Of a stretch of 64,000 nucleotides of DNA, positions 9,872-63,025 are shown piece after piece (position 1 is the first letter of the stretch; each line of letters opens with the position of its first letter). Under the pieces are notes generated by a model. It was given only the letters and a program-made list of their open reading frames with translations, was not told the origin of the DNA and ran no database searches. The DNA comes from Bacteroidetes bacterium ADurb.Bin145 (GTDB lineage Bacteria > Bacteroidota > Bacteroidia > Bacteroidales > VadinHA17), in the NCBI GenBank assembly GCA_002070505.1, contig MWDJ01000005.1:73627-137626 (forward strand), read 5' to 3'. The translations under genes and the position numbers were made by a program.

Positions 9872-9979
9872 GTCATTTGAAATAAGTGTGGTATGAAGAT
9901 ACAAAAACTATTGGGATTAAGCTCTCACAGGATAATTCGGGATTACTCGCTACGCTCGTGATCCCTTGTGGGGAGGCTT

Positions 9980-10112: not shown

Positions 10113-10202
10113 GCGGAGAAAGAGGGATTCGAACCCCCGGTCCACCGATAGGCGGACAACGGTTTTCAAGACCGCCGCATTCGACCACTCTGCCATTTCT
10201 CC
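10111..10202 (-). tRNA. tRNA-Ser (anticodon UGA), CCA encoded
   Basis: The reverse complement reads GGAGAAATGGCAGAGTGGTCGAATGCGGCGGTCTTGAAAACCGTTGTCCGCCTATCGGTGGACCGGGGGTTCGAATCCCTCTTTCTCCGCCA. The 7-bp acceptor stem is GGAGAAA/TTTCTCC. The anticodon loop CTTGAAA gives TGA. There is a long variable arm (GTCCGCC/GGTGGAC) and a T-loop TTCGAAT. Confidence 0.9.
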
Positions 10203-12903: not shown

Positions 12904-12905
12904 AG

Positions 12906-13727: not shown

Positions 13728-13750
13728 ATTCAATATTCTACTTTAAAATA

Positions 13751-14269: not shown

Positions 14270-14401
14270 TAAGATAGCTTTCTGTAATTAATGTCATGTT
14301 CTGCAATATGCCAGAAAATGACTATTTGTCAGTTAAAATCACTGGCACATCTTTTGAAAAGGACTTGACGACAATTTCCGTAAAACTAAAACTCAGATGA
14401 T

Positions 14402-16447
14402 ATGCAGACTGGAAAGATTGGAGTTACTACAGAGAACATTTTTCCTATAATCAAGAAGTTCCTGTATTCGGATCATGAGATATTCCTCAGGGAGCTTATT
14501 TCAAATGCCGTCGATGCCACGCAGAAGCTGAAAGCGATGGTCCAGGCAGGTGATTTCAAGGGTGACCCCGGTGACCTTACTATAAGGGTCGATGTTGATA
14601 AAAAGAAGAAAACAATTAAAGTAACTGACAGGGGAATAGGCATGACGCAGGAGGAACTTGATAAATATCTGAACCAGATAGCTTTCTCAAGCGCCAATGA
14701 ATTCCTTGACAAGTACAAGGACCAGACTAACTCGATAATCGGTCACTTCGGACTTGGCTTTTATTCATCATTCATGGTATCTGAAAAGGTTGAGGTGTTG
14801 ACCAGGTCATGGCAGGAAAACGCTCAGGCAGTAAAATGGACCTGCGACGGAACCCCTGAATTCACTATTGACAAGACTGAAAAAGACGACAGGGGGACAG
14901 AGGTTATCCTGCATCTGGATAAGGATTCCAAAGAATTCCTGGAGGAAAATAAAATCGAGGAGCTGCTCAAAAAATACTGCAAGTTCCTTCCCGTTGAAAT
15001 AGCCTTTGGAAAGGAAAAGGAATGGAAAGACGGAAAATATGTGGATACCGGGAAAGACAAGATTATTAATAACACAAAACCTGCCTGGACATTAAAACCT
15101 TCTGAACTGAAGGATGAGGATTACCTGAAATTCTACAGGGAATTGTATCCGATTGGTGATGAGCCTCTCTTTAATATCCATCTGAATGTTGATTATCCTT
15201 TTAAACTGACGGGTATATTGTATTTCCCAAAAATTAAAAGCAATATAGAGATACAGAAGAACAAAATACAACTTTACTGCAACCAGGTATTTGTGACAGA
15301 CTCTGTGGAAGGTATTGTGCCTGAATTCCTTACTCTGTTGCACGGGGTAATCGATTCTCCCGATATACCTCTGAATGTATCAAGAAGTTATCTTCAGAGT
15401 GATGCTAATGTTAAAAAAATCTCAGGGCATATAACCAAGAAAGTCGCTGACAGGCTGAGCGAGATTTTTAAGAACAACAGACCTGAATTTGAAAAGAAAT
15501 GGGACAGCCTGAAGCTCTTCATCGATTACGGAATGATAACTGAAGAAAAATTCTACGAAAAAGCTGTAAAATTTGCACTTCTAAAAAACACTGATGACAA
15601 ATATTTTACTCTCGAGGAGTATGAAAAACTGATAAAAGACAAACAGACAGACAAGCATAAGAGTCTGATATATCTGTATTCAACCAATAAGACAGATCAG
15701 TATGCCTATATAGAAAAAGCTAAGAACAGAGGATATGATGTACTTCATATGGATGGACAGCTTGATGTTCATATGATAAACCACCTTGAGACCAAACTCA
15801 AGGATTCGCGGTTTGTCAGAGTAGATTCAGATGTCATTGATAAGCTTATTCAGAAAGATGAGATGCGCGAATCAAAGCTGACTGATGAACAGAAAGATGA
15901 TCTTAAAAGTGTTTTTAATGTAAAAGTGAAATCTGGCGAAGTTTACAATGTTGTGTTTGAGACACTTGATGAAAACGAAGCACCGGTGTTGATAACCCAG
16001 TCAGAATTCATGAGAAGGATGAAGGATATGTCCCAAATAGGTGGAGGCATGAATTTTTATGGTGAGCTGCCTGACAGTTATAATCTTGTTATTAATCCAA
16101 ATCATCCTCTGATACTCAAAATATATGAAGATTTGAAGGCTCAGGAGGGGGAAAAACTCGCAGAAAATGGAAAGAAGAAAAAAGAGTTGAAGGAGGAAAT
16201 CGATTTTCTTGAAAAAGAACATAGCAAGAAAAAACAGGATGAAATAAGCCAGGTCGAGAAGGATGACCTTGAGAAGCTAAGGAAATCCCTTCAGGAAATT
16301 GAAGATTCAAGGAAAATAACTCTCGAAACCTACGGAGGGAGCAACAAACTGGTAAAGCAGCTTATTGATTTAGCTCTGCTTGCAAACAATATGCTAAAAG
16401 GAGAAGATCTGAGCACTTTTGTGAAGAGAAGCGTTGAGCTTCTTTAG
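14402..16447 (+). CDS. htpG: molecular chaperone HtpG (Hsp90)
   Basis: Motifs FLRELISNAVDA, DRGIGMT and GHFGLGFYSSFMV. Length is 681 aa. Confidence 0.92.
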   Translation: MQTGKIGVTTENIFPIIKKFLYSDHEIFLRELISNAVDATQKLKAMVQAGDFKGDPGDLTIRVDVDKKKKTIKVTDRGIGMTQEELDKYLNQIAFSSANEFLDKYKDQTNSIIGHFGLGFYSSFMVSEKVEVLTRSWQENAQAVKWTCDGTPEFTIDKTEKDDRGTEVILHLDKDSKEFLEENKIEELLKKYCKFLPVEIAFGKEKEWKDGKYVDTGKDKIINNTKPAWTLKPSELKDEDYLKFYRELYPIGDEPLFNIHLNVDYPFKLTGILYFPKIKSNIEIQKNKIQLYCNQVFVTDSVEGIVPEFLTLLHGVIDSPDIPLNVSRSYLQSDANVKKISGHITKKVADRLSEIFKNNRPEFEKKWDSLKLFIDYGMITEEKFYEKAVKFALLKNTDDKYFTLEEYEKLIKDKQTDKHKSLIYLYSTNKTDQYAYIEKAKNRGYDVLHMDGQLDVHMINHLETKLKDSRFVRVDSDVIDKLIQKDEMRESKLTDEQKDDLKSVFNVKVKSGEVYNVVFETLDENEAPVLITQSEFMRRMKDMSQIGGGMNFYGELPDSYNLVINPNHPLILKIYEDLKAQEGEKLAENGKKKKELKEEIDFLEKEHSKKKQDEISQVEKDDLEKLRKSLQEIEDSRKITLETYGGSNKLVKQLIDLALLANNMLKGEDLSTFVKRSVELL

Positions 16448-32030: not shown

Positions 32031-32930
32031 TCAGGCTCTCGGATGAAACATCAGAAGCGTGTCGCGCAGGAAGCTCCTGTCGATATGTGTATAGATCTCC
32101 GTTGTCAAAATTGATTCGTGACCCAGCATTTCCTGCACAGCCCTGAGATCTGCTCCGCCTTCAATAAGGTGAGTTGCAAAAGAATGGCGGAATGTATGGG
32201 GACTGATCTTTTTTCTAATGCCGGCTCTTGACGCGAGATTTTTTATTATCGTGAAAATCATGGCTCTTGTAAGTCTTCTTCCCCTGCGGTTAAGGAATAC
32301 AATGTTCTCGTCATAGATAACCGGCAGTCTGTTCCTGAGTGTTTTGTAGTTATCAATTTCTTTCAGCGCTTTGTTGCTTATAGGTACAAGTCTTTGCTTG
32401 TTACCTTTGCCGGTCACAGTCACAAATCCTTCACCTGAATGGATATCTGTAAACCTCAGGTTAACGAGCTCAGAAACTCTGAGACCGCAACCATAGAGTG
32501 TCTCAATAATTGCTTTATTCCTGTGCCCGTCAGGTTTGCTCAGATCAATGGCGGAGATAATCCTGTCAATTTCCTCTACTGACAGAACCTCCGGAAGCTT
32601 GAGACCGATCCTGGGTGATTCCAGAAGTGTTGACGGATTTTCATTTATTTCATTTTCGATGAGAAGAAACCTGAAGAATGCTCTTATACCTGAGATTACT
32701 CTCGATTGTGTCCTGGCATTATCGTTATTTTTACTGAACCACAACAGGAAATCCCTTAGGTCCTGATAAGATACAGATCCTGGCATCATTCCGCTGTTCC
32801 CGGAGTTAAAATAACTCTCAAGTTTCATAACATCATCAGAATAGGCTTCAATACTGTTCTCCGACAGTGATTTCTCAAGCCGCAGATAAGTCCTGAAATC
32901 CTTTAGTGCCTGCTGCCAGGTAAGACTCAT
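32031..32930 (-). CDS. xerD: tyrosine site-specific recombinase XerD
   Basis: Motifs LYGCGLRVSEL and HTFRHSFATHLIEGGADLRAVQEMLGHESILTTEIYTH. 299 aa, with a SAM-like N-terminal domain. Confidence 0.85.
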   Translation of the reverse strand: MSLTWQQALKDFRTYLRLEKSLSENSIEAYSDDVMKLESYFNSGNSGMMPGSVSYQDLRDFLLWFSKNNDNARTQSRVISGIRAFFRFLLIENEINENPSTLLESPRIGLKLPEVLSVEEIDRIISAIDLSKPDGHRNKAIIETLYGCGLRVSELVNLRFTDIHSGEGFVTVTGKGNKQRLVPISNKALKEIDNYKTLRNRLPVIYDENIVFLNRRGRRLTRAMIFTIIKNLASRAGIRKKISPHTFRHSFATHLIEGGADLRAVQEMLGHESILTTEIYTHIDRSFLRDTLLMFHPRA

Positions 32931-52172: not shown

Positions 52173-53522
52173 ATGAAAGCAATCAATTACATATCAGTCC
52201 TTGCCCTTCTGGCAACAATGTCTTGTACATCAGGACTTTACAAAGGGGTTGAATATGACGATCTCTACTTCCAGTCATCGGACAGGCAGGCGGTAGCAGC
52301 CCGTACACCGGCATCCCGGAGGATTGTGGAGAGCGATCTGAAATCGGCAGACTATTATGATAATATATATGCAGCTGATACGCTCATGTCGGAAGAATAT
52401 TATGATGCTGTCGATTACGATGATGCTGTTCAAAGCAAAGGTGGTGGAACAACGATATATAATAACTATTACGACAATTACTCATATGCTTCAAGGCTTA
52501 ACAGATTTTACGGAAATTACTTCTATCCTTACTGGAGAGATCCTTTCTACTCCAGCTGGTACTATCCGTCATTAAGCTTTAATTTTGGATATCCATACTT
52601 TTACAACTCGTATTACTACAATCCATTCTATTACGATCCTTTCTTCTATGATTACGGGTACTACGGCTATTATGGAAACTATTTCAGCCCTTACGGATAC
52701 TATCCATATTATTCGTACTATTCTCCCTACAGTTATTATGGAGGCTGGGGTTACTACCCGGGCGGATATTATAATGATAATTCAGTAGCATATGGTAGAC
52801 GTGAAAGACAAAGTAACTTATCTACAAGTTATAATAGAAATATGATGCCGACTTCAGCATCATCATCTCCAAGGAGAGAGGAAACCCTTTCAAAAGGTAC
52901 AACGTCAGGTGAGTCCGTGAGATCAACTGATATAAGAAGAAGTGATCTGCCATCTTCATCAACCAGGCAGAACACCAGAAGTTCATCCGTTGGTAATTCC
53001 GATCAGAATGATGTCAGAAATCAGCCCGCAACAACCGAAAGGAGAACATCCACAAGGAGCAGTACCTCTGTCAGCAAACCAGAATATAACAGCGTGAACA
53101 GGACATATACTCCGAGTTACAGCAACCCGAGGATGAGCACAAGGCCTTCCTATAATAACAGCCGTGTCAATTCCAATACGAGATCGAATTCAGGAGGGCA
53201 GATTAATGATAATACACCGGCCCGGACCAATTCCGGAAGAGGATCATCATCAATTTCAGCTGAACAAAGCAGATCGACATCAACTTACAGGAATTCAAAT
53301 AGTTATTCGGTTCCTTCAAGAGAAAGTGTACAACGCTCTTCCGGTTTCTCTTCAGGATCGGGCAGCGAAGGAAGATCATCATCTTCATTCAGCAGGAGTT
53401 CTTCGTCGGGCGGCGGCGGATATTCCTCAATGCCATCTTCCGGTAGCTCTTCAGGATCATCTGGTTCCTCCAGTTCATCAAGATCATCAGGCGGAGGATC
53501 ATCATCCGGTGGAAGGAGATAA
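52173..53522 (+). CDS. lipoprotein paralog of the Tyr-rich protein: Tyr/Phe/Gly/Pro-rich core plus Ser/Arg/Thr/Asn-rich tail
   Basis: Lipoprotein signal (VLALLATMSC). It shares the block IYNNYYDNYSYASRLNRFYGNY with the upstream protein (IVINNYYDNYDYYYTSRIYRFHRSY). The core includes PYFYNSYYYNPFYYDPFFYDYGYYGYYGNYFSPYGYYPYYSYY. The long S-rich tail ends in SSGGRR. Confidence 0.6.
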   Translation: MKAINYISVLALLATMSCTSGLYKGVEYDDLYFQSSDRQAVAARTPASRRIVESDLKSADYYDNIYAADTLMSEEYYDAVDYDDAVQSKGGGTTIYNNYYDNYSYASRLNRFYGNYFYPYWRDPFYSSWYYPSLSFNFGYPYFYNSYYYNPFYYDPFFYDYGYYGYYGNYFSPYGYYPYYSYYSPYSYYGGWGYYPGGYYNDNSVAYGRRERQSNLSTSYNRNMMPTSASSSPRREETLSKGTTSGESVRSTDIRRSDLPSSSTRQNTRSSSVGNSDQNDVRNQPATTERRTSTRSSTSVSKPEYNSVNRTYTPSYSNPRMSTRPSYNNSRVNSNTRSNSGGQINDNTPARTNSGRGSSSISAEQSRSTSTYRNSNSYSVPSRESVQRSSGFSSGSGSEGRSSSSFSRSSSSGGGGYSSMPSSGSSSGSSGSSSSSRSSGGGSSSGGRR

Positions 53523-53605
53523 GGAATTAATTTTCAATAAATCTAAATTAGCGGTTCATTCTTTTGATGGAGTGGTGGAATGCTTTTAACGAAAAGTTCA
53601 CAATT

Positions 53606-55105
53606 ATGAAAAAACTATGCTTAATAATATTGCTGGTATTGTCACTCACAATCTGGGCAGATGCCCAGACTGTTGACGATGCCTTGAGATACTCTCAGAT
53701 ATTCTATTCAGGGACATCCAGGTTCTCTTCAATGGGAGGCGCATTTACTGCTCTTGGAGGCGACTTGTCAACCCTTAGCCAGAATCCGGCAGGAATCGGA
53801 CTCTTCAGGTCTTCTGAAGTTTCAATTACACCCCAGCTCTTCCACATAAACACACTGGCAAATTTTAAGACAAAGAGCCGTGAGGATTATCTTTACGACT
53901 TTAATCTACCTCAGCTGGGATTTGTGGTTAACCTTATTAATAAAAATTCGGGAACAGGTCTGATGTCCCTGAATCTTGGATATTCATTCAATAAGACAAA
54001 TAATTATAATCAGACTATAGTAATAGAAGGGACCGGTGATCAGAGTTCACTAGCTGATTACTGGGCAGAATACAATAACGGATACATCCTTGATGATATG
54101 TCAAGTGATGCGTATATCGGATGGCGGGCTTTTGTGATTGACTCAGTTGCCGGTTATAACAACCAATGGGGTACTGTTTATTCAGGATACGGCAGCGAAG
54201 CTTCATTATATGGTCAGAACATCTCCCGTTACATCACTTATTCAGGCTTCAGCGGTGAGCATGCAATCTCTGTTGGGGGAAACTGGTCAGATAAGATCTA
54301 CTTCGGAGCAACATTGGGTATTAACCGGATCAGCTATAAAAGTCATTATGAGCATCTTGAAGCAACGAACAAAGTATTGCCAGACAGATACTCCGATGTC
54401 GCTGGTTTCACTGATTTCAGATATACTTTTGACTACAGCAACACCGGAACGGGATTCACTTTTAAAACAGGCATAATCTACAAACCTATCGAAACACTCA
54501 GACTCGGATTTGCATTTCATTCGCCAACAATCTACAGGATACATGAAGAGGCATACGATCATATAACATCTCATTTCGATGTCGGTGGAATAAAAGAATT
54601 CTCAAATAATTTTGAAGGCTTTGATTATGCTTTGACGACTCCTTTCAGGATAATTGTCGGAGGAGCTCTTCAAATCAAGAAGTTCGCTCTCCTGAGTGCT
54701 GAATATGAATTTGCTGATTATAAAACAGCAAGGTTCGCTAATGTGCGGGACGATGATTATGATTACAGCATCAAAAACCAGCAGATTAAAAGCAGCCTTC
54801 ATTCAGCGAACAATTTAAGGCTTGGCGCCGAATTCAGGCTGAATAAAATCTATCTCAGGGGCGGTTACAGTTATTATGGAAGAGCCTGGCAGGCAGGAGA
54901 ACTAAATGATTTTCTTGATTATAATGCAGTTTCCTGCGGTATAGGCTTCAGGGAAAAAAATATCGGCATCGATATCGGATATACTCATATGACAAATCCG
55001 ATGAATTATATTCTGTATGATACGTACAGCGAAACAGCTGCATCAGATATGACAATAAACAGGAATATTTTTAGTGTCACTTTCGGATATAAATTTGGTT
55101 ACTGA
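53606..55105 (+). CDS. outer-membrane beta-barrel protein, FadL/TodX/PorV-like
   Basis: Start set at the ATG at 53606 (MKKLCLIILLVLSLTIWADAQ). Hatch-type motif GTSRFSSMGGAFTALGGDLSTLSQNPAGIG. Alternating strands follow. The C-terminus FSVTFGYKFGY is typical of OM barrels. No terminator lies between it and the preceding gene. Confidence 0.6.
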   Translation: MKKLCLIILLVLSLTIWADAQTVDDALRYSQIFYSGTSRFSSMGGAFTALGGDLSTLSQNPAGIGLFRSSEVSITPQLFHINTLANFKTKSREDYLYDFNLPQLGFVVNLINKNSGTGLMSLNLGYSFNKTNNYNQTIVIEGTGDQSSLADYWAEYNNGYILDDMSSDAYIGWRAFVIDSVAGYNNQWGTVYSGYGSEASLYGQNISRYITYSGFSGEHAISVGGNWSDKIYFGATLGINRISYKSHYEHLEATNKVLPDRYSDVAGFTDFRYTFDYSNTGTGFTFKTGIIYKPIETLRLGFAFHSPTIYRIHEEAYDHITSHFDVGGIKEFSNNFEGFDYALTTPFRIIVGGALQIKKFALLSAEYEFADYKTARFANVRDDDYDYSIKNQQIKSSLHSANNLRLGAEFRLNKIYLRGGYSYYGRAWQAGELNDFLDYNAVSCGIGFREKNIGIDIGYTHMTNPMNYILYDTYSETAASDMTINRNIFSVTFGYKFGY

Positions 55106-55167
55106 TACTTTGTTTGACTTCCTACTCAGGGCTGGTTCATCCGAACCAGCCTTTTTTATATAAGATC

Positions 55168-55773
55168 TTATAAGAAAACTCTTGTCTCCGGTCCTGTATT
55201 GAACAGGATATCAATAATGCTGAGCTTCCGGGAACCTGGAATGTCCGCGTTGAACACCTGTTGATATTTTTTTGGGATGTAAGGAGAGGCTTTTTTAGGA
55301 TTGATACAATACCGGAGATCATTTGATTTACCTTCAACAGGCTGAAATCTATTAGTAAAAGTAACTCTTTTGTCCATCCTTATCATTCCGAGTATTGCCA
55401 TTAGCAGCTCCTGATTGAGGTCAAGGATATAAATGTGGTTTTTAAGGATGATTTTTTGAAGTGTTTCAAAATAGTAAAGAAAAAATGGTGATGAGCCGTA
55501 TGATGACATTATAGCTCCGAGATGGACCTGCTGCCATCTTTTTGAATAATCTATCCTGATATCCCTGATGGGAGTTTTATGGAGACTCCCGAGTAATACA
55601 GGCACACTAAGCATTTGAATACCGTTGGAAGACAGTATATAGCACCTGTTGCGGTAAGATTGTTTGAGGTAGTTCTCTTCGTTTTCAATAAGAACTTCAT
55701 CATATTCTGCTATTGCCGCGAAGTATTCGGAGGGAGGAAGATATGCAGTAGAAAGGTAAACTGTCGCAGGCAT
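55168..55773 (-). CDS. WbqC-family protein
   Basis: Motifs YLPPSEYFAAI and KQSYRNRCYILSSNGIQMLSVPV match my recollection of the WbqC-like family. It lies 12 nt downstream of larB. Confidence 0.65.
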   Translation of the reverse strand: MPATVYLSTAYLPPSEYFAAIAEYDEVLIENEENYLKQSYRNRCYILSSNGIQMLSVPVLLGSLHKTPIRDIRIDYSKRWQQVHLGAIMSSYGSSPFFLYYFETLQKIILKNHIYILDLNQELLMAILGMIRMDKRVTFTNRFQPVEGKSNDLRYCINPKKASPYIPKKYQQVFNADIPGSRKLSIIDILFNTGPETRVFL

Positions 55774-55785
55774 AAATTATTAGGA

Positions 55786-56535
55786 TTATTTCATCCTGTT
55801 GATCATGCTTGCTGAGAAACCTGCGCCGAAGCCATTATCGATATTAACAACAGTGACTCCTGCAGAGCAGCTTGTCAGCATAGCCAGCAGAGCCGAGATA
55901 CCTCCGAAATTGGCGCCATAGCCAACGCTCGTCGGCACAGCAATGACAGGCTTATCAACCAGACCGCTTACAACACTGGCAAGGGCTCCTTCCATACCTG
56001 CAATCACTACCACTACCTTGCTTTTTCTTATCTCCGGGAGCTTATCAACAAGCCTGTGAATCCCGGCTACACCTGCATCATAGATCCTTGTAACTTTATT
56101 CCCGAGGAGCTCTGCAGTTACTGCAGCTTCTTCCGCAACCGGAATATCTGAAGTTCCTGCTGTTATGACCGCAATTGTGCTTCCAGGGATAGTTGTTTTC
56201 TTCTTTTTTATAGAGATGATCCTTGCTTCTTTGTAGTAAACTGCTTCAGGGAATATTGATTTTATCTCATTAAACATATTCTCACTGGCCCTTGTGCCAA
56301 TTATATTATTTTCTTTCTTTATCATTACCCTGAATATTTCACGAACCTGTTCGGTCGTCTTGCCTGCGCAGTAAACTATTTCAGGATAACCGGTTCTCAT
56401 TTCACGGTGATGATCAATCCTGGCAAAGCCAAGGTCGGTATACGGAAAAGTTCTGAGCACTTCAAGTGCTTCAGCAACACTTTTACTGCCGTCCCTGACT
56501 TCTTTCAACAGTTTTTCAGTTTCTTTTTCTGTCAT
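55786..56535 (-). CDS. larB: nickel-pincer cofactor biosynthesis protein LarB (pyridinium-3,5-biscarboxylic acid mononucleotide synthase; PurE/AIR-carboxylase-like)
   Basis: 249 aa. Motifs ARIDHHREMRTGYPEIVYCAGKT, VITAGTSDIPVAEEA, AGMEGALASVV and VPTSVGYG. Confidence 0.8.
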   Translation of the reverse strand: MTEKETEKLLKEVRDGSKSVAEALEVLRTFPYTDLGFARIDHHREMRTGYPEIVYCAGKTTEQVREIFRVMIKKENNIIGTRASENMFNEIKSIFPEAVYYKEARIISIKKKKTTIPGSTIAVITAGTSDIPVAEEAAVTAELLGNKVTRIYDAGVAGIHRLVDKLPEIRKSKVVVVIAGMEGALASVVSGLVDKPVIAVPTSVGYGANFGGISALLAMLTSCSAGVTVVNIDNGFGAGFSASMINRMK

Positions 56536-56536
56536 T

Positions 56537-57334
56537 TTATTTCAATTCAGTATTCATACTACCTGTTCTGTAACCCTCAAGGTCCAAAGATATATATCTG
56601 AACCCGATTTTTTTTAAGCCCTCAATGATACTGTTTTTCTGCGGATCACATATGATCTTTTCAGAATAACCTGGGAGTAGCTCAATTCTGGCAATATCTG
56701 AATGTGCCCTGACCCGGGCTCCCGGATATCCCTTTTCCAAAAGCAAATCTTCTGCTTCTTCAACCATTTTTATTATGCCAGGGGTAATTTCCGTATCATA
56801 AGGGATTCTTGTCAGCAGACAGGCCATAGCCGGTTTATCCCATATTTTCAGACCTGCATTCAGGCAGAGCTCCCTTATTTCTTTCTTTGTCAATCCGGCT
56901 TCTGCAAGCGGGCTCCTTACTTCCATTTCTTTTAAAGCCCTCAGACCCGGCCTGTATTCGCGGGTATCATCAGAATTAGTACCGTCAATTATGTGTTTAA
57001 ATCCATTTTCTCTTGCAAATTCTACAAGATGACTGAATAGCAGTTTTTTGCAAAGATAACATCTGTTCTGCGGGTTGTGTCTTATCGCTTCCGGGAAGCT
57101 GATATCTATGATCTTGTGGTTGATACCATGAGCAGCTGCGAATTCAATCGCTTCGTTGATCTCACGTGCCGGCATATAGGGAGTCCGGATTGTTACAGCT
57201 ATGAACCTGATATTATTCAGCCTGCTTGTATGATAGACAAGGTAAGAGCTGTCAAGGCCACCGGAGAACGCAACCACAAAAGGACTCAAACCTGTCAGTA
57301 GGGTGTCAAGCCTGTCAGTCTTTTTCTGATCCAT
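56537..57334 (-). CDS. larE: LarE sulfur transferase (PP-loop ATP pyrophosphatase) of nickel-pincer cofactor synthesis
   Basis: PP-loop motif VVAFSGGLDSSY. Cys triad CYLC plus ACLLTRIPY. 265 aa. The stop lies 1 nt before the larB start. Confidence 0.8.
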   Translation of the reverse strand: MDQKKTDRLDTLLTGLSPFVVAFSGGLDSSYLVYHTSRLNNIRFIAVTIRTPYMPAREINEAIEFAAAHGINHKIIDISFPEAIRHNPQNRCYLCKKLLFSHLVEFARENGFKHIIDGTNSDDTREYRPGLRALKEMEVRSPLAEAGLTKKEIRELCLNAGLKIWDKPAMACLLTRIPYDTEITPGIIKMVEEAEDLLLEKGYPGARVRAHSDIARIELLPGYSEKIICDPQKNSIIEGLKKIGFRYISLDLEGYRTGSMNTELK

Positions 57335-57380
57335 AATACCTTAATTATTCATAGAAATTTTATCTGGTCAGAAAATAGTT

Positions 57381-58550
57381 CTACTTTCCGTTTATTGAAG
57401 CCATGATCCTGAAATAGACCTCCTTCACAGGAAGGCCCTTCTCAAGTGCTATCTTTCTGCATTCCTCATATTCAGGTTTGCACGATACTTCCTTGTCTTT
57501 ATAAAAAGAACGTTTAACAGTAATATTTCCGTATGGCGACTGAACAACTTCGAATTTCCTTACAAGAGTATCCTTCCTGAAGGAATAGGTTCTGACTCCC
57601 ACGGTTGTGGATTCATTGAAGATGATCTCCTTTATTTTATCTTCGTGACCGCGTTCACAAATGACATTCAGAACATTTCCCGGTCTGCCTTTCTTCATTA
57701 ATATATTTGTAATAAAAACATCAGAAGCTCCTGCTTTAAATAATTCATCTGAGATATGTTCGAAAAATTCCGGATTCATATCGTCGATATTGCACTGGAT
57801 CATCAGGGCATCGTGTCCTCCCTGCGGTTCTTCTGATTCAGCCAGAAAAACCCTCAGAAGGTTAGGAACGTCAGGATGTTCCTTCTGACCGACTCCGTAT
57901 GCAGTCTTTTCAATCCTGATAGCGGACGGCATTTTTGGCATTGTCACCAGGGTTGCAAGTATGGCTGCACCTGTAGGAGTGGTAGCTTCAAAATCAACAC
58001 CACCTTTTCTGACCGGTAAGCCCTTGATTATTTCAACAGTGGCAGGAGCAGGAACAGGCAGCTTTCCGTGTGCGCACTTGACAAATCCACTTCCAAGTTC
58101 AACTGTCGAAACCGTGACAGCTTCAACATTCAGTTTATTAAAGCATATAGCGGCACCAACGATATCAATTATTGAATCCACGGCTCCCACTTCATGAAAA
58201 TGGATCTCATCGGGGCTGACACCGTGGACCTCTGCTTCTGCTTCAGCAACAACTCTGAATATTTTCCGGCTCAGTGCTTTGGTCTTGAGGTCGAGCGCAG
58301 ATTCATTTATTATTTTCTCAATATCAGACAGATGCCTGTGAATATGTTCATGGCGGGTCTGTTTTACAGTGACTTTAGTGCCGGTTATCCCGTGCCGCTG
58401 GGCTTTCTCAACAACAAGTTCCCATCCTTTGAGATTCAGCTTATTCAATTCATCAACAAGATAGGTCTGGTCAATACCCAGATCAATCATTGCTCCGAGA
58501 TTCATATCCCCGCTGATCCCGCTAAAACAGTCGTAAAAAAGTAATTTCAT
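57381..58550 (-). CDS. larC: LarC nickel insertion protein (DUF111, CTP-dependent cyclometallase)
   Basis: The N-terminus LLFYDCFSGISGDMNLGAMIDLG is the DUF111/LarC signature. 389 aa. First gene of the larC-larE-larB cluster. Confidence 0.8.
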   Translation of the reverse strand: MKLLFYDCFSGISGDMNLGAMIDLGIDQTYLVDELNKLNLKGWELVVEKAQRHGITGTKVTVKQTRHEHIHRHLSDIEKIINESALDLKTKALSRKIFRVVAEAEAEVHGVSPDEIHFHEVGAVDSIIDIVGAAICFNKLNVEAVTVSTVELGSGFVKCAHGKLPVPAPATVEIIKGLPVRKGGVDFEATTPTGAAILATLVTMPKMPSAIRIEKTAYGVGQKEHPDVPNLLRVFLAESEEPQGGHDALMIQCNIDDMNPEFFEHISDELFKAGASDVFITNILMKKGRPGNVLNVICERGHEDKIKEIIFNESTTVGVRTYSFRKDTLVRKFEVVQSPYGNITVKRSFYKDKEVSCKPEYEECRKIALEKGLPVKEVYFRIMASINGK

Positions 58551-58790
58551 TAGTCAAAATAGTTTTACTGTTAGACAAACAGAAATGGTTATTGTTGTGA
58601 AACATCCCAAAATTCTCAGGATGCTAATATACAATTTCCATATGATCTGTCAGATTCTTCGCTGGTACAAAAATTAATTCAGGTCAGGCCGTTAAGAGTA
58701 TTTAAGATTTATAATTACGGAATAAAGAAAAAAAATTGTACTTTTCGGCATTCTCGATAATTATCCTGTAATAAACTAATAGAGTTCACT

Positions 58791-59711
58791 ATGAAGAGAC
58801 GGGATTTCCTTAAAACATCGGCTGGGGCCGGACTTATGGCCGGCGCAGCCTTCAGACTCGGCAGGTATGATAATCTGATGACAAGCCGTGCCGGGAATGC
58901 CAAGTATGATATGGTTGCTATCAAGGGTGGCTCTCCGGAAGCTATGTTCGATCTAGGGATACAGGAGCTGGGAGGAATGAAAACATTTGTGAGTAAAGGT
59001 CAGAAAGTCCTTGTCAAACCGAATATCGGATGGGACGTTGTACCTGAATTCGGAGCATGCACAAATCCCCTGCTAGTTGCACGGGTTATAGAGCACGTCC
59101 TGAGAGCCGGAGCCAAAGAAGTTTATGTATTTGATAATTCGGTAGACTACGGACCAAGCTGCTACAAGACTTCCGGTATCGAGAGAGCTGCTAAAAATGC
59201 AGGTGCCAAAGTTGTCCCTGCTCATTCTGAACGCTATTATCAGCAGGTTGAAATCCCTGGCGCTGTAGTGCTTAAGAAAGTCAAGGTGCATGAGGTCCTC
59301 CTTAATACCGACGTTTTCATTAATCTACCCATCCTGAAAGATCATGATACCACAAGAATGACAGCATGCCTTAAAAACATGATGGGCGTGATCTGGGACC
59401 GAAAATGGTGGCATTCAAATAATCTTGACCAGTGTATTGCTGATTATGGGTTGTTTGAAAAGAAACCTTCTCTGCATATACTTGATTGCTATAATGTTAT
59501 GTTTAGAAACGGCCCAAGAGGAATATCAAAACAGGATGTCGTCCAGATGAAATCCCAGATAATTACAACCGACTGGGTGGCAGGAGACACAGCAGCCACA
59601 AGATTACTTGGCATAGAAACATCAAGGATTGCACATGTTCCTCTTGCAAGCAAACTCGGACTCGGGACGATGAATATTGACGCTCTCAATATTAAAAGGA
59701 TTCAAATGTGA
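58791..59711 (+). CDS. DUF362-family protein with twin-arginine (Tat) signal peptide
   Basis: The N-terminus MKRRDFLKTSAGAGLMAGAAF is a Tat consensus. DUF362-type blocks: KVLVKPNIGW, CTNPLLVARVIEHV...GAKEVYVFDN and INLPILKDHDTTRMTACLKNMMGV. There is no Cys-cluster motif. Confidence 0.7.
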   Translation: MKRRDFLKTSAGAGLMAGAAFRLGRYDNLMTSRAGNAKYDMVAIKGGSPEAMFDLGIQELGGMKTFVSKGQKVLVKPNIGWDVVPEFGACTNPLLVARVIEHVLRAGAKEVYVFDNSVDYGPSCYKTSGIERAAKNAGAKVVPAHSERYYQQVEIPGAVVLKKVKVHEVLLNTDVFINLPILKDHDTTRMTACLKNMMGVIWDRKWWHSNNLDQCIADYGLFEKKPSLHILDCYNVMFRNGPRGISKQDVVQMKSQIITTDWVAGDTAATRLLGIETSRIAHVPLASKLGLGTMNIDALNIKRIQM

Positions 59712-59715
59712 TTTG

Positions 59716-61275
59716 ATGAAAACGCCCTTTCTTCGGAAATTCAGAATACTTTTTTCGGCAGTTGTTTTTATCTGTTTCTTTCTTGTATTTGTTGATCTAA
59801 AGAACCTGATACCGGTTAATTATATTAATATACTTCTGTCGTTGCAGTTCATTCCTTCCTTATTGAAGTTTTTTGATCTCAGAACATTCATAACGGCAGG
59901 TTTCATAGCTGTTTTAATTCTGACATTGCTGACGGGAAGGACATATTGCTCATTTTTATGTCCTCTTGGAATAGGCCAGGATTTTTTCAGCAGGATAGGA
60001 GGCCGGATAAGAAAAAAATTCAGGAGATACGGTTATAAAAAACCATTTACTGTAATCAGGTATACGTTACTTGGTATTACAGCCGTAATCACCCTTATTT
60101 GGGGCGTTTATATGCTGACGCTTCTCGATCCTTACAGCATATTCGGAAGGTTCATGACATATTTCGTAAAACCTGTTGTTATTGTTATTAATAACTTTGC
60201 TGAAGGGATACTTGCAAAATTTGATATCTATTCCCTTATTCATGTACCTGTACTGGGTTTCAAGCCGTTTGTCTATATAGTACCTGCTGTATTTGCACTT
60301 CTGATTGGAGGATTATCCCTTACCAAAGGAAGACTTTATTGCAATATGATTTGTCCTGTAGGCACTCTCCTCGGGCTCTTTTCAAAACTCTCCCTGTTCA
60401 GGATCAGGATCGACGAGAGCACTTGTACAAGGTGCGGCAGATGCTCGATAGGATGCAAATCCTCATGCATTGATTTTCTTAGATATGATATTGATGTCAC
60501 ACGTTGTGTCGATTGTTTTAATTGTATAAAAATCTGTCCCGACAAAGCTATCTCATATAGTCTTGTCAGGTTAAAAAAGAAAACTCCTGAAACAGATCCC
60601 GGCAGGCGCAGGTTTGTAGCAGGATCGCTTCTGCTGCTACTTGGTATCCCCACAGTACTGCGGGGCCAGGAAAAGAAGGTTCCTAAAGCAACAAAGCAAT
60701 CAACTGTTAAAGAGGATAAGACTTGTCCGGTTTGTCCCCCGGGAGGTATATCTATTGAAGATTTTCAGCAGGATTGTACAGCTTGCTCCCTTTGTATATC
60801 AAATTGTCCGACAGGTGTTTTGCAGCCGGCCTGGCTTGAATATGGGGTTTCCGGGATCATGCAGCCAGTCATGGATTATCACCGGGGGTTCTGCAATTAC
60901 AATTGCACTAAATGCACCGAGATTTGCCCGACCAATGCGCTCCATCCTTTAGTGCTTGAAGCAAAAAAGCTTACACAGCTGGGGCAGGTCCATTTCATTA
61001 AGGATAACTGCATAGTAAAAAATGAAAAAACCGCCTGCGGTGCCTGTTCCGAATCATGTCCGACAAAAGCGGTATATATGGTTCCTTATGAAGGCGACCT
61101 TGTAATTCCTGAAACAAATCCTGAGATTTGCATCGGATGCGGTCAGTGTGAATATTCCTGTCCCACAACTCCTTACAAAGCAATATTTGTGAACGGAAAT
61201 CCTGTTCATCAGGTAGCTAAAAAACCTGAGAGCACCGAAGCTGAAATAGCTATTCCTGACGAGTTCCCGTTCTGA
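59716..61275 (+). CDS. membrane polyferredoxin, NapH-like N-terminal module fused to a NapG-like 4-cluster module via an internal RRR+TM segment
   Basis: Start set at the ATG at 59716, 4 nt after the DUF362 stop. Membrane motifs YCSFLCPLG and YCNMICPVG (CX3CP). Cys motifs: CTRCGRCSIGC, CVDCFNCIKICP, then GRRRFVAGSLLLLLGIP, then CTACSLCISNCP, CNYNCTKCTEICP, C..CGACSESCP and CIGCGQCEYSCP. Confidence 0.7.
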   Translation: MKTPFLRKFRILFSAVVFICFFLVFVDLKNLIPVNYINILLSLQFIPSLLKFFDLRTFITAGFIAVLILTLLTGRTYCSFLCPLGIGQDFFSRIGGRIRKKFRRYGYKKPFTVIRYTLLGITAVITLIWGVYMLTLLDPYSIFGRFMTYFVKPVVIVINNFAEGILAKFDIYSLIHVPVLGFKPFVYIVPAVFALLIGGLSLTKGRLYCNMICPVGTLLGLFSKLSLFRIRIDESTCTRCGRCSIGCKSSCIDFLRYDIDVTRCVDCFNCIKICPDKAISYSLVRLKKKTPETDPGRRRFVAGSLLLLLGIPTVLRGQEKKVPKATKQSTVKEDKTCPVCPPGGISIEDFQQDCTACSLCISNCPTGVLQPAWLEYGVSGIMQPVMDYHRGFCNYNCTKCTEICPTNALHPLVLEAKKLTQLGQVHFIKDNCIVKNEKTACGACSESCPTKAVYMVPYEGDLVIPETNPEICIGCGQCEYSCPTTPYKAIFVNGNPVHQVAKKPESTEAEIAIPDEFPF

Positions 61276-61381: not shown

Positions 61382-61801
61382 ATGAGTCCGTCACATATTG
61401 AACATATCGGTATTGCCGTAAAAGATCTGAAATCAGCCGTCAGATTGTACGAAAACCTTCTGGGACGTGAATGCTATAAAATTGAAGAAGTGCCTGGTCA
61501 GAAAGTACGGACTGCCTTCTTCAGAATAGGTGAGGTGAAGATTGAACTTCTTGAATCAACTGACCCTGAAGGACCCATTGGTAAATTCATCGAAAAAAGA
61601 GGTGAAGGAGTACATCATATTGCTTTTGCAGTAAATGATATCGGGAAGCAGCTGGAAATTGCAAGAGACAATAATATAGGACTTATAAACGAGATCCCGC
61701 AGGAAGGAGCGGATGGTCTTGATATAGCTTTTATTCATCCTAAATCAACCTCCGGTGTTCTGATAGAACTCTGTGAAGATAAAAGGAGCGGACCTGAATA
61801 A
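61382..61801 (+). CDS. mce: methylmalonyl-CoA epimerase (VOC/glyoxalase-fold)
   Basis: 139 aa. Motifs IEHIGIAVKDL, VKIELLE, GEGVHHIAFAV and GVLIELCE. Confidence 0.75.
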   Translation: MSPSHIEHIGIAVKDLKSAVRLYENLLGRECYKIEEVPGQKVRTAFFRIGEVKIELLESTDPEGPIGKFIEKRGEGVHHIAFAVNDIGKQLEIARDNNIGLINEIPQEGADGLDIAFIHPKSTSGVLIELCEDKRSGPE

Positions 61802-61813
61802 ATCATAAATGAT

Positions 61814-63025
61814 ATGAACAGGCAGATTGCTGTAAGTGGTAACTCAGGGCCAAAGGTCAGATCAGATTGTGAAATAACAATTGAATTAAAAAACAAAGGT
61901 GGCCTGACTATCGATCTTGAGTCAAGAGTCAAAGTTCTTTATGGAAACTCAATCACTGAACTTTGCAGACAGACCCTGCATTTTTTCGGGATAAAAAATG
62001 CTTATGTTAAGATCTCTGATTCGGGAGCTTTACCGTTTGTGATAACTGCACGTGTTGAAGCTGCTTTAAAGAAACTTATTGATACTAACAGCGAATACCT
62101 TCCTGAAATTACCAATCAGGGAGGCTATTCTTTCTCAAGAGACAGGTTCAGGTTTTCGCGACTCTACGTACCTGGTAATACTCCCAGTCTGATGATAAAT
62201 GCAGGCCTCTATGGAGCTGACGGGATCATCCTTGATCTCGAGGATTCAGTTGCTCCTGATAAAAAGGATGAAGCCAGGATTCTTGTCAGGAACGCGCTTC
62301 GTCAGCTTGATTTCCGGGATGCAGAAAGAATGGTAAGGATAAACCAGTCAGAAAAAGGACTCGAAGATCTGTGGTACGTCGTGCCGCATAATGTGAACCT
62401 GATACTGATACCGAAATGCGAATCGGAAGATGATATACATTTAGTAGAAAATGAGATCAATAAAATCAGGAAAAAGCACAGGATTAATAAAGTCATCTTA
62501 CTGATGCCAATTATAGAGAGCGTATCGGGGATCGAAAATGTGTCGTCTATTGCCAGGGCATCAGAGAATATTGTTGCATTAGCTATCGGACTGGAAGATT
62601 ATACGGCAAGCATTGGTGTGTCAAGGACTTTTGAAGGCAGGGAATCATTCTATGCAAGATCAAGGCTGGTTGTGGCGGCAAAAGCAGCTGGTATTCAGCC
62701 TATTGACTCCGTTTTTTCAGATATTGATGATCTGGAAGGTCTTAAAAGAAGCATTATTGAATCCAGATCACTGGGCTTTGAAGGGATGGGATGCATCCAT
62801 CCCAGGCAGATACCGGTCATCAGTGAGGGTTTTGCTCCAAAGGAAGATGAGATAGAAAAAGCAGTTAAGATCATTCAGGCTTTTGAAGAGGCAAAGAGCA
62901 GGGGACTGGGTGTTGTGGCACTTGGCTCTAAAATGATTGATGCTCCTGTTGTGGCAAGAGCTCAGAAAACGATTGACCTGGCTGTCAGGCTGGGTAAACT
63001 TTCCCGTAACAGGGCTGAAGATTGA
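61814..63025 (+). CDS. citrate lyase gamma (acyl carrier, CitD)-beta (citryl-CoA lyase, CitE) fusion protein
   Basis: The N-terminal ~95 aa resemble CitD (AVSGNSGPKVRSDCEITIEL; DSGALPFVITARVEAAL, compare E. coli DKGALDCILRARLEA). The remainder is HpcH/CitE-like (SRLYVPGNTPSLM, GADGIILDLEDSVAP, IESVSGIEN, LAIGLEDY). Confidence 0.7.
   Translation: MNRQIAVSGNSGPKVRSDCEITIELKNKGGLTIDLESRVKVLYGNSITELCRQTLHFFGIKNAYVKISDSGALPFVITARVEAALKKLIDTNSEYLPEITNQGGYSFSRDRFRFSRLYVPGNTPSLMINAGLYGADGIILDLEDSVAPDKKDEARILVRNALRQLDFRDAERMVRINQSEKGLEDLWYVVPHNVNLILIPKCESEDDIHLVENEINKIRKKHRINKVILLMPIIESVSGIENVSSIARASENIVALAIGLEDYTASIGVSRTFEGRESFYARSRLVVAAKAAGIQPIDSVFSDIDDLEGLKRSIIESRSLGFEGMGCIHPRQIPVISEGFAPKEDEIEKAVKIIQAFEEAKSRGLGVVALGSKMIDAPVVARAQKTIDLAVRLGKLSRNRAED

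Follow-up and report, generated by a model that had tools for sequence, protein, structure and literature searches.

The 64-kb window analysed here (the whole stretch of DNA) carries, next to the genes for nickel-pincer nucleotide (NPN) synthesis, a gene for a Tat-signal DUF362 protein that, according to sequence comparison and structure prediction, is a remote LarA homologue with a LarA-like fold. We consider it probable that this protein is a nickel-pincer redox enzyme that is loaded in the cytoplasm, exported by Tat, and trades electrons with the polyferredoxin encoded downstream. The original prediction had named the DUF362 protein as a candidate client of the adjacent NPN pathway, and this candidacy gained support from the predicted LarA-like fold, the aligned Lys and His residues, and the recurrent linkage to lar genes. 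If correct, the DUF362 protein would represent a new class of nickel-pincer enzyme that works in the periplasm and is wired to an iron-sulfur protein of the membrane. In the literature, no paper tying DUF362 to the nickel-pincer cofactor was found.

Organization of the lar transcription unit

A coordinate check of the 64-kb window placed all genes of the locus where the original prediction had put them. LarB is the carboxylase/hydrolase of the first step in nickel-pincer cofactor synthesis, LarE is an ATP-dependent sulfur insertase, and LarC is a CTP-dependent nickel insertase. All three were encoded on the minus strand; the three peptides quoted as their signatures, including TAGTSDIPVAEE of LarB, were found in the translations, and the family models scored above their cutoffs. 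LarC (57381-58550) was full length, comprising both the LarC1 and the LarC2 part (PF01969, 487.6 bits; NCBIfam LarC1, 214.9 bits, and LarC2, 141.8 bits, each above the cutoff), and LarB (55786-56535) matched the NF033503 equivalog with 303.6 bits against a cutoff of 175. LarE (56537-57334; TIGR00268, 294 bits against a cutoff of 150) belonged to the CXXC-C type and contained an SGGLDS motif together with Cys92, Cys95, and Cys172, which correspond to the three cysteines that ligate the cluster in T. maritima LarE (PMC9283937). From its sequence, the LarE of the locus is predicted to use a [4Fe-4S] cluster.

The final gene of the unit, located 12 nt past larB as had been described, encodes a WbqC-like protein of 201 aa (55168-55773, minus strand; PF08889, 125 bits), for which neither an NCBIfam match nor a significant PDB match by sequence was obtained. 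A GC-rich hairpin with a T-run (55128-55153; 11 pairs, six of them G-C) lies between the end of wbqC and a convergent outer-membrane-protein gene; this site, terminator-like by consensus match only, likely closes the larC-larE-larB-wbqC unit. Between larC and the DUF362 gene, which are transcribed divergently, lie 240 nt (58551-58790; length likewise verified) that presumably contain the promoters of both units and in which no Rfam family reached the gathering score.

Tat signal and predicted fold of the DUF362 protein

The DUF362 protein of 306 aa (58791-59711, plus strand; PF04015, 154 bits) has the N-terminus MKRRDFLKTSAGAG. The twin-arginine signal proposed for it was borne out: the motif KRRDFLK (58794-58814, plus strand) was verified in the translation, and R3, R4, and F6 were conserved in 93, 86, and 87%, respectively, of 128 diverse relatives (33-51% identity), with the Pfam TAT_signal model at 21.5 bits, slightly below its cutoff of 22.7. 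The reported lack of a Cys-cluster motif also held, as no cysteine was conserved family-wide; C193 was G, A, or S in most relatives and C233 was A.

The DUF362 protein had been treated as unrelated to LarA. This view had to be abandoned, since DUF362 and the LarA N-domain belong to one Pfam clan, CL0471 (PMC11770544). Furthermore, when two independent models of the DUF362 protein were compared with the PDB, the best 18 matches were solely LarA-family structures for each. The better one, an AlphaFold2 model with a pLDDT of 92.7 and a pTM of 0.85, gave Foldseek E values of 6e-6 to 1e-3 and TM scores of 0.41-0.52 for these 18 LarA superfamily matches, and the next match followed at E 5e-3 and TM 0.24. 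LarA-family structures were thus matched as anticipated, and no others at comparable scores. We propose to read the DUF362 protein, as modelled, as a pared-down relative of the N-terminal domain of LarA.

The earlier statement that no LarA lies nearby holds for canonical LarA only, which was indeed absent from the 64 kb, because DUF362 is itself a LarA relative. No match to the Lar_N/DUF2088, aldo-keto reductase (AKR), or ornithine cyclodeaminase families was obtained among window ORFs of at least 150 aa, and a LarA profile run on the six-frame ORFs of the window and of about 340 related loci (16,019 ORFs in all) likewise gave no match. LarA-family enzymes had also been taken as the sole known NPN users, which is superseded by the AKR-type NphT and the ornithine cyclodeaminases reported in PMC13524815.

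The H-K-H motif and its alignment to LarA

Profile-profile alignment (hhalign) of DUF362 with LarA paired H185 with H174, K195 with K184, and H208 with H200. In LarA, K184 is the covalent cofactor tether, H200 is a nickel ligand, and H174 is catalytic (PMC12611868). In DUF362, these residues form an H185-x9-K195-x12-H208 motif (HDTTRMTACLKNMMGVIWDRKWWH; 59343-59414, plus strand; codons verified) and were conserved in 93, 94, and 92% of the 128 relatives, respectively. The tether Lys and the Ni-binding His of LarA, the residues that had been singled out for comparison, thus align with DUF362 residues that are 92-94% conserved. The H-to-K spacing is 10 residues in both proteins, whereas the K-to-H spacing is 13 in DUF362 and 16 in LarA. 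Against a profile of 10 LarA homologues, the score was 26.8, compared with 20.5 or less for 30 column-shuffled controls and 18.0 for the reversed alignment; the H185 and K195 pairings were stable under every local hhalign setting and the H208 pairing under two of four. At the sequence level, the alignment was weak (E 0.011), and the DUF362 residues aligned with LarA H108, D72, and R75 were of other types, the H108 position being Asp or Asn. Attachment of NPN to Lys (covalent), with His as a nickel ligand, is described for LarA and also for the unrelated AKR NphT (PMC13524815).

The H-K-H motif could also be an ancestral ligand-binding feature of the clan and no NPN signature. In that case, the DUF362-polyferredoxin pair would be a periplasmic redox module with another centre, and the lar genes would serve a client elsewhere in the genome. 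Candidates are a mononuclear metal on His185, His208, and Asp232, or a different nicotinate-derived ligand; the metal would be loaded in the cytoplasm and would therefore call for Tat export. We regard this explanation as possible though doubtful. It is favoured by the weak sequence alignment with LarA and by the presence of the H-K-H motif in a cytoplasmic DUF362-ferredoxin fusion of Subdoligranulum, where the flanking 12 kb contain no lar gene. However, the aligned trio comprises precisely the tether, the nickel ligand, and the catalytic base of LarA, at the spacings given above.

The polyferredoxin encoded downstream

The original description covered its genes correctly but ended at 59711, leaving out the co-transcribed gene that starts 4 nt past the DUF362 stop (59716-61275, plus strand). 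The product, 519 aa from the ATG, is a polytopic polyferredoxin, a NapH-NapG fusion of the dual Sec/Tat type, with two Fer4_5 and several Fer4 dicluster family matches; NapH, NapF, and NapG-like NCBIfam matches were all under their cutoffs. It contains four TM segments, two Cx3CPxG motifs, and CxxCxxCxxxC at residues 237, 264, 354, and 472. An internal twin-arginine segment, GRRRFVAGSLLLLLGIPTVLRGQEKK (60601-60678, plus strand; sequence and coordinates verified), has an RR motif, trailing positive charges, and a hydropathy below the threshold met by the four N-terminal spans. In the dual Sec/Tat polyferredoxin family, the fifth membrane span requires Tat, and a rule for such a span is set out in PMC5449189. 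Since the RR, the weak hydropathy, and the trailing positive charges match this rule, the segment is predicted to form a Tat-dependent fifth span, with the C-terminal Fe-S domain on the periplasmic side.

DUF362 was followed by the polyferredoxin gene in nearly all loci, 78 of 80 in the Bacteroidales and 75 of 80 in other phyla, where no other neighbour was conserved. We propose it as the putative electron partner of DUF362. It is also conceivable that the DUF362 protein, although it binds NPN, catalyses a redox-neutral racemisation or epimerisation in the periplasm as LarA does in its own setting, with the polyferredoxin only keeping or reactivating an oxidation-sensitive cofactor outside the cytoplasm. 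Indeed, the characterised LarA-superfamily enzymes are all racemases or epimerases (PMC11770544, PMC7583248), and the predicted LarA-like fold and the equivalent of the catalytic His174 are retained. We nevertheless judge such a role improbable, as DUF362 has Asp or Asn in place of the second LarA catalytic His (H108) and lacks the C-terminal substrate-binding domain of LarA, and as the near-universal Fe-S partner, adjacent or, in the cytoplasmic form, fused, suits stoichiometric electron transfer better than occasional repair.

Recurrence of the lar-DUF362 linkage

Among 80 species-level Bacteroidales loci, LarC was present in 73, LarB in 67, and LarE in 60, and wbqC was syntenic in 68 of 80 related loci. 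Because the entire neighbourhood was syntenic across the Bacteroidales loci, we count this linkage as one evolutionary event. Two Bacteroidales species (L003 and L005) have a common precise deletion of larBEC, so that wbqC now adjoins DUF362. In both, DUF362 has remained intact, and 68 synonymous versus 7 non-synonymous codon differences show strong purifying selection on it. The DUF362-proximal stretch of the intergenic region, AAAAAAAATTGTAyTTTTCGGC, also occurs in these two species. LarC was not found in either assembly by an exact 8-residue-word scan of the MAGs, which could miss a relocated or replaced gene. In Parabacteroides distasonis, the DUF362-polyferredoxin pair had no lar gene within 12 kb.

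The position of wbqC immediately past larB on the same strand, together with its synteny, would also fit the co-transcribed WbqC-like protein being a client or modifier of the cofactor, with DUF362 a mere neighbour. This is highly improbable in our view: no kinship of WbqC to any NPN-binding fold was detected, wbqC was seen beside lar genes in the Bacteroidales clade only, and it was kept in L003 and L005 despite the lar deletion, an objection equally valid for DUF362.

Outside the Bacteroidales, a lar gene within 10 kb of DUF362 was the exception, seen in only 3 of 80 genome loci and 1 of 80 metagenome loci, many of these being short contigs. In an unrelated high-GC lineage (67-70% GC), lar genes accompanied DUF362-polyferredoxin in 6 of 11 loci and were absent in 5. 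Three of these loci (L351, L353, and L354) had larB-larE-larC-DUF362-polyferredoxin in one direction and tightly packed, L352 had larB-larC-DUF362-polyferredoxin, and L287 and L355 had partial versions of the operon; the larC stop and the called DUF362 start overlapped as ATGA in L351, L352, and L354. Lar genes were also near DUF362 in Syntrophaceae (L132, L134) and Ca. Glassbacteria (L149). Three independent events were counted outside the Bacteroidales in 1.84 Mb of flanking DNA, against a chance expectation of about 0.14-0.46 (rough Poisson P 4e-4 to 1e-2). The link noted at this locus thus recurs in separate lineages with differing architectures, including the packed operon. Between lar and DUF362 in the Syntrophaceae loci lies a Tat-signal aldo-keto reductase (an AKR-ferredoxin fusion), which could be the true NPN client there.

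The lar loss in L003 and L005, the scarcity of lar genes outside the Bacteroidales, and the weak LarA alignment count against DUF362 as an NPN client. A DUF362-polyferredoxin module with another centre would accommodate the retention of DUF362 in those two species, the lack of nearby lar genes in most other-phyla loci and P. distasonis, and the single syntenic block behind the Bacteroidales adjacency. On the other hand, the larB-larE-larC-DUF362-polyferredoxin operons of an unrelated lineage, with their translational coupling, are difficult to account for unless the genes are functionally linked, lar adjacency exceeds chance, and the lar-adjacent loci contained no candidate client besides DUF362, save the Syntrophaceae aldo-keto reductase. 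Cofactor-synthesis genes are, moreover, often located away from client genes.

Proposed mechanism

Returning to the DUF362 protein as an exported nickel-pincer redox enzyme, the gene identities, the fold kinship, the conserved and aligned residues, the Tat motifs, and the recurring linkage are results of the analysis, whereas we infer that the protein binds NPN, is exported, and docks on its partner, and we likewise infer the direction of the reaction and its substrate. NPN would be made in the cytoplasm by the products of larC-larE-larB and installed on DUF362, with Lys195 as the likely covalent tether and His208 as the likely nickel ligand. Because NPN loading would be possible in the cytoplasm only, the folded holo-protein would be exported via Tat. 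In the periplasm, it would dock onto the C-terminal Fe-S domain of the polyferredoxin, itself placed outside via the internal twin-arginine span. The pair would then act as a redox enzyme in which His185, the equivalent of the LarA catalytic His174, serves as acid/base, NPN takes or gives a hydride, and the [4Fe-4S] chain carries two electrons between NPN and either the menaquinone pool or carriers in the cytoplasm. We favour the dehydrogenase direction (substrate to NPN, Fe-S, and quinone) because LarA chemistry starts with hydride abstraction; the reaction would amount to the first LarA half-reaction, with an electron sink replacing hydride return. Counting against the redox interpretation, we know of no precedent for the transfer of NPN hydride equivalents to one-electron Fe-S centres.

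Comparison with known systems

The LarA superfamily (Lar_N, DUF2088; PDB 5HUQ, 9EIA, 9Q3J) shares its Pfam clan with DUF362 and provided the sole significant PDB fold matches; counterparts of the tethering Lys, of the His that binds Ni, and of one catalytic His occur at aligned positions, and the DUF362 gene is linked to larB, larC, and larE. However, DUF362 is missed by LarA sequence models, has 306 aa versus about 424 aa in LarA, is without the Lar_C substrate domain, has Asp/Asn for H108, and leaves D72 and R75 unmatched. Its Tat signal and its obligatory Fe-S partner are features that we did not find reported for LarA, and net redox chemistry would be expected of DUF362 rather than racemisation.

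NphT, an AKR homologue (Nat Chem 2026, PMC13524815), is likewise a non-LarA client found by larBCE adjacency, with a Lys/His pair and net hydride transfer. It differs in its TIM-barrel fold, and the accessible text describes no Tat signal or Fe-S partner for it, although a Tat-signal AKR-ferredoxin fusion does occur between lar and DUF362 in Syntrophaceae.

The polyferredoxin resembles the NapGH quinol dehydrogenase and the fused polyferredoxin of delta proteobacterium MLMS-1 (Tooke et al. 2017, PMC5449189) in its NapH-type membrane part, Cx3CP motifs, and cytoplasmic clusters, and in the internal twin-arginine span followed by a periplasmic domain of the NapG type with four clusters. In nitrate respiration, NapGH serves the molybdoenzyme NapAB, whereas the conserved partner here is DUF362; for the MLMS-1 protein, the accessible passages name no partner, and the term DUF362 does not occur in the paper. 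MsrPQ, as summarised in PMC5449189, offers no more than an analogy as a two-gene system of a cofactor-loaded Tat substrate and a dedicated membrane redox protein on the respiratory chain, with a molybdenum cofactor and haem b in place of the predicted LarA-like fold and Fe-S clusters of the present pair.

Results

Gene organization of the window

The cluster larC-larE-larB-wbqC, separated by 240 nt from a DUF362 gene and with no LarA gene in the 64 kb, had been described in the original prediction. Both the layout and the absence were confirmed, since the gene identities were established with curated models and no LarA-type match was found in the window. On the minus strand, larC (57381-58550) scored 214.9 bits with NCBIfam LarC1 (cutoff 90) and 141.8 bits with LarC2 (cutoff 50), whereas larE (56537-57334) and larB (55786-56535) scored 294.1 bits (cutoff 150) and 303.6 bits (cutoff 175), respectively, with curated equivalog models. 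The set that builds the cofactor nickel-pincer nucleotide (NPN) was thus complete, with LarB, LarE, and LarC all exceeding curated equivalog cutoffs. Together with the WbqC-like gene (55168-55773, minus strand), these genes were spaced by 46, 1, and 12 nt in turn from larC onward, and the WbqC-like gene was co-transcribed with larCEB throughout the Bacteroidales clade. LarE of the window carried Cys92, Cys95, and Cys172 in the CXXC-C arrangement that binds a [4Fe-4S] cluster in Thermotoga maritima LarE (PMC9283937).

Among window ORFs of at least 150 aa, no match to Lar_N/DUF2088, aldo-keto reductase (AKR, PF00248), or ornithine cyclodeaminase was obtained, and neither the window nor about 340 related loci gave a match to a LarA profile. 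A tblastn search with an AKR of Syntrophaceae gave no match in the window or the 80 Bacteroidales loci (L001-L080), and Rfam detected no riboswitch in the window.

Several other genes were noted. A methylmalonyl-CoA epimerase gene and a single ORF fusing a citrate-lyase acyl-carrier (CitD-like) domain to a CitE-like lyase (61382-63025) lay directly downstream of the polyferredoxin gene described below, and both were syntenic clade-wide. At 52173-53522, a 449-aa predicted secreted protein of low complexity, extremely rich in Tyr, Ser, Gly, and Asn and with no family match, was encoded upstream of a conserved protein (53564-55105) that had no Pfam match and was provisionally assigned as an outer-membrane protein. 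An enolase-superfamily (mandelate racemase/muconate lactonising) enzyme (8546-9904), a tRNA gene (10114-10202), and a phage-integrase-family tyrosine recombinase (32031-32930) had no apparent tie to the present finding.

The DUF362 protein and the downstream polyferredoxin

The DUF362 gene (58791-59711, plus strand) matched PF04015 with 154.2 bits (cutoff 24) over residues 73-270, the entire length of the model. Its product begins with MKRRDFLKTSAGAG, in which the twin-arginine motif KRRDFLK is followed by the mildly hydrophobic TSAGAGLMAGAAF, and is a predicted Tat substrate. The Pfam TAT_signal score (21.5) was slightly under the cutoff of 22.7, and the RR-x-F motif was kept in 86-93% of 128 representatives sharing 33-51% identity with the window protein. 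No cysteine was conserved across these 128 sequences. The canonical twin-arginine start and the lack of a recognisable cofactor motif, both pointed out earlier, held. Among representative clusters at 50% identity, phmmer matched 5,004 to the family; longer DUF362 proteins were examined as possible fusions, and none contained a lar domain.

The original account of the locus left out a co-positioned gene that starts 4 nt past the DUF362 stop codon (59716-61275) and encodes a polyferredoxin of 519 aa. From its N-terminus, the protein has four hydrophobic spans, two Cx3CPxG motifs, and two CxxCxxCxxxC motifs, followed by an internal GRRRFVAGSLLLLLGIPTVLRGQEKK segment (internal motif 60601-60678) and a C-terminal domain with several further cluster motifs.

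Structural relationship of the DUF362 protein to LarA

DUF362 served as the outgroup in a study of the LarA superfamily because both families sit in Pfam clan CL0471 (PMC11770544). A first structure model of the window protein from a shallow alignment (pLDDT 68) gave LarA-family proteins as its top 18 PDB matches. The second model, for which 74 sequences of at least 32% identity were aligned, had a pLDDT of 92.7 and a pTM of 0.85, and its top 18 Foldseek matches in the PDB, including 9Q3J, 4NAR, 2YJG, 9EIA, and 5HUQ, all belonged to the LarA superfamily (E 6e-6 to 1e-3; TM 0.41-0.52 against LarA entries, query-normalised with the signal peptide included). The first non-LarA match had an E of 5e-3 and a TM of 0.24. 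The Foldseek comparison proposed earlier thus came out in favor of LarA, and the window protein is predicted to have the LarA N-domain fold. The statement that no LarA lies nearby holds for canonical LarA in the window, but the DUF362 protein itself is a LarA relative.

Sequence searches did not reveal this kinship: Pfam gave only PF04015 and TAT_signal for the DUF362 protein without any LarA/DUF2088 model, PDB searches with the single sequence or a shallow profile gave no LarA, and a profile of 10 LarA homologues did not match DUF362 at E <= 1e-3. The relationship is detectable only through fold and profile-profile comparison.

For the latter, Lactiplantibacillus plantarum LarA was taken from a plasmid record, the numbering of D72, R75, H108, H174, K184, and H200 was confirmed, and 10 LarA homologues from plasmid records and the PDB were aligned. 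Comparison of a 129-sequence DUF362 alignment with these homologues by hhalign gave a score of 26.8 (E 0.011), whereas none of 30 column-shuffled controls exceeded 20.5 and reversing the alignment gave 18.0. Against the single LarA sequence, a weak 33-column match was obtained (E 0.16). The alignment paired H185, K195, H208, and D119 of DUF362 with H174, K184, H200, and H108 of LarA, respectively; the H185-H174 and K195-K184 pairings were stable in all local alignment settings, and H208-H200 appeared in two of four. In LarA, H174 is a catalytic histidine, K184 the lysine bonded covalently to the cofactor, and H200 a nickel-binding histidine (PMC12611868). As judged from these alignments, K195 and H208 are the putative counterparts of the cofactor-tethering K184 and the nickel-binding H200. 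Conservation among the 128 representatives was 93% for H185, 94% for K195, and 92% for H208, and it was similarly counted for K76 (96%), N78 (92%), K183 (94%), N196 (98%), R204 (88%), and D232 (98%).

Neighbourhoods in Bacteroidales

Subsequently, 80 species-level Bacteroidales loci (DUF362 identity 63-94%) were compared. The polyferredoxin was present in 78 of them, LarC in 73, WbqC in 68, LarB in 67, and LarE in 60. The outer-membrane protein, methylmalonyl-CoA epimerase, and citD-citE flanks showed synteny equal to that of the lar genes; since the whole neighbourhood is syntenic, the clade counts as one evolutionary event. The real NPN client might instead be WbqC, which shares this synteny; a WbqC-like gene was not found beside lar genes in lineages outside this clade, and we regard such a role as very improbable.

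At eight loci (L016, L021, L027, L046, L054, L069, L070, and L080), larE alone was missing while larB and larC were kept; either larE lies elsewhere in these genomes or its role is taken by a different sulfur insertase. A genome scan for LarE was insensitive, recovering 19 loci against 60 LarE genes already known. In Parabacteroides distasonis, a Tat-DUF362-polyferredoxin pair (46% identity; 12001-14538 of the L267 chromosome fragment) had no lar genes within 12 kb.

Two species (loci L003 and L005) shared a precise larC-larE-larB deletion at about 9650-10000, by which wbqC now adjoins DUF362. Identity between their DUF362 genes was 91.7% at the DNA level and 97.7% at the protein level, and the differing codons comprised 68 synonymous and 7 non-synonymous changes. 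DUF362 and the polyferredoxin are therefore intact and under purifying selection despite the loss of larBEC. A LarC scan of these two metagenome-assembled genomes by exact 8-residue words recovered neither assembly. This deletion is the strongest objection to the DUF362 protein being an NPN client, and it gains weight from the many loci where no lar genes are nearby. Such loci would also suit the alternative that another metal or ligand occupies the H-K-H site, which we consider rather unlikely. Cofactor genes may lie apart from their clients.

Neighbourhoods in other phyla

A further 80 loci were taken from Calditrichota, Acidobacteriota, Nitrospirota, Desulfobacterota, Aminicenantes, Zixibacteria, and other groups. 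In 75 of these, DUF362 was followed by the polyferredoxin, which was the sole conserved neighbour. Lar genes were near DUF362 in three: in Ca. Glassbacteria (L149), larE lay downstream of the polyferredoxin gene, and in two Syntrophaceae loci (L132 and L134), a Tat-signal AKR-ferredoxin fusion and a DUF6599 protein lay between lar and DUF362. Because the AKR intervenes, the Syntrophaceae adjacency was discarded as clean independent support.

This Tat-signal AKR fused to a 4Fe-4S dicluster domain (L132, 7784-9941; L134, 7721-9812) adjoins larBEC in Syntrophaceae, and it was also found upstream of DUF362-polyferredoxin in L129, L082, L127, and L269, often with DUF6599. As NPN-dependent AKRs were reported in 2026, the fusion could represent a second exported NPN candidate.

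When metagenomes were scanned with seeds from a different DUF362 subgroup, larE-larC-DUF362-polyferredoxin was recovered on a single strand (L287), and this lineage (67-70% GC) was traced through ten further contigs (L349-L358). The order larB-larE-larC-DUF362-polyferredoxin was observed in L351, L353, and L354, larB-larC-DUF362-polyferredoxin in L352, and a fragmented form in L355. In L351, L352, and L354, the larC stop overlapped the called DUF362 start as ATGA. No lar genes were nearby in L349, L350, L356, L357, or L358, so that lar-adjacent and lar-less DUF362 loci both occur among close relatives. Outside Bacteroidales, three independent lar-DUF362 events were counted in 1.84 Mb of flanking DNA, against a chance expectation of about 0.14-0.46 (rough Poisson P 4e-4 to 1e-2). 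The neighbourhood association sought in the original prediction is thus repeated at the operon level beyond the clade.

Canonical LarA was absent by LarA profile from every lar-adjacent locus. Conversely, LarC-anchored loci of other phyla (L227-L241) all lacked DUF362 within 4 kb; a polyferredoxin match in L229 was rejected as a DUF362-type partner, being a NapH-only protein. In Subdoligranulum variabile (L268, 11887-13032), a cytoplasmic DUF362 protein with a C-terminal 4Fe-4S dicluster domain retained the KPN and K-x-H...KN...H motifs, so that LarA-like residues and Fe-S coupling are general to DUF362 rather than confined to exported members.

Discussion

The proposal that the DUF362 protein is a client of the adjoining NPN pathway was supported by independent computational tests of fold, residues, and linkage. 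The fold, the anchoring residues, a Tat signal with no other cofactor motif, and the repeated larBCE linkage converge on this reading, and we consider it probable that DUF362 binds NPN and has a redox partnership with the polyferredoxin. The protein would take up the cofactor in the cytoplasm, be exported by Tat in the folded, loaded state, and function as a periplasmic redox enzyme together with the polyferredoxin.

Few organometallic cofactors occur in biology, and NPN is one of them. The clients known to date are racemases and epimerases of the LarA type, which are cytoplasmic, joined since 2025-2026 by an AKR family and ornithine cyclodeaminases. DUF362 could likewise be an NPN-dependent isomerase whose polyferredoxin merely reactivates the cofactor; we think this unlikely, because the Fe-S partner is near-universal and the second catalytic histidine of LarA is replaced. 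The same two features favor net electron transfer over racemisation. For the redox enzyme, the favored direction would be substrate oxidation with electrons passing to the quinone pool, although we infer both direction and substrate.

That LarA enzymes are the sole NPN users, as originally stated, has been superseded. A recent report describes NphT, a nickel-pincer-dependent AKR homologue, and NPAD-dependent ornithine cyclodeaminases, both discovered by mining lar neighbourhoods; the NphT study purposely concentrated on proteins without LarA homology (PMC13524815). Our literature searches found no DUF362-NPN connection and nothing relevant on lar genes in Bacteroidota; as no paper joining DUF362 and the cofactor was found in the literature collection searched, the hypothesis appears unpublished. 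It is tractable in the laboratory, since the cultured human gut bacterium P. distasonis has the same gene pair.

Were DUF362 a client, this widespread, functionally uncharacterised family would obtain a cofactor assignment open to testing, NPN chemistry would reach the periplasm and membrane electron transport, and dual Sec/Tat polyferredoxins would acquire a catalytic partner; the upstream Tat-DUF362 neighbour conserved across phyla would give the orphan polyferredoxin its counterpart. More tentatively, the whole family, including Tat-exported forms with polyferredoxins and cytoplasmic forms fused to ferredoxin domains, might constitute a second large nickel-pincer superfamily in which hydride chemistry at the organometallic Ni-C cofactor, a two-electron process, is linked to Fe-S chains that carry one electron at a time. 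It has long been noted that genomes carry larBCE in excess of larA. Were the superfamily real, part of that excess would be explained, and these would be the first extracytoplasmic, respiratory-chain-linked NPN enzymes.

Comparison with known systems

For NapH-NapG fusion polyferredoxins, Tooke et al. (2017) showed membrane insertion by Sec and Tat jointly, with a twin-arginine span as the Tat-dependent fifth membrane span and a periplasmic NapG-like domain (PMC5449189). Matched to that description, the window polyferredoxin appears to be of this dual Sec/Tat type: it shares the NapH-type spans, Cx3CP motifs, and cytoplasmic clusters, as well as a fifth span that is weakly hydrophobic, preceded by an RR motif and trailed by positive charges, and a putative periplasmic multi-cluster domain.

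The likeness of DUF362 to LarA is partial. LarA has two catalytic histidines, H108 and H174, whereas in DUF362 only H174 is matched, by H185; the H108 position is D119, Asp or Asn family-wide. LarA homologues with a single histidine exist (PMC12611868). The positions aligned with D72 and R75 hold other residue types, and the C-terminal substrate domain of LarA (Y294, Q295, K298) is absent from the 306-aa protein, Y294-Q295 being aligned to Ala-Ala and K298 unaligned. With H108, D72, and R75 unmatched and no C-terminal domain, DUF362 is LarA-like, not a LarA, and we would place the window protein in a distant branch of the LarA-like fold whose members are presumably exported and coupled to Fe-S clusters.
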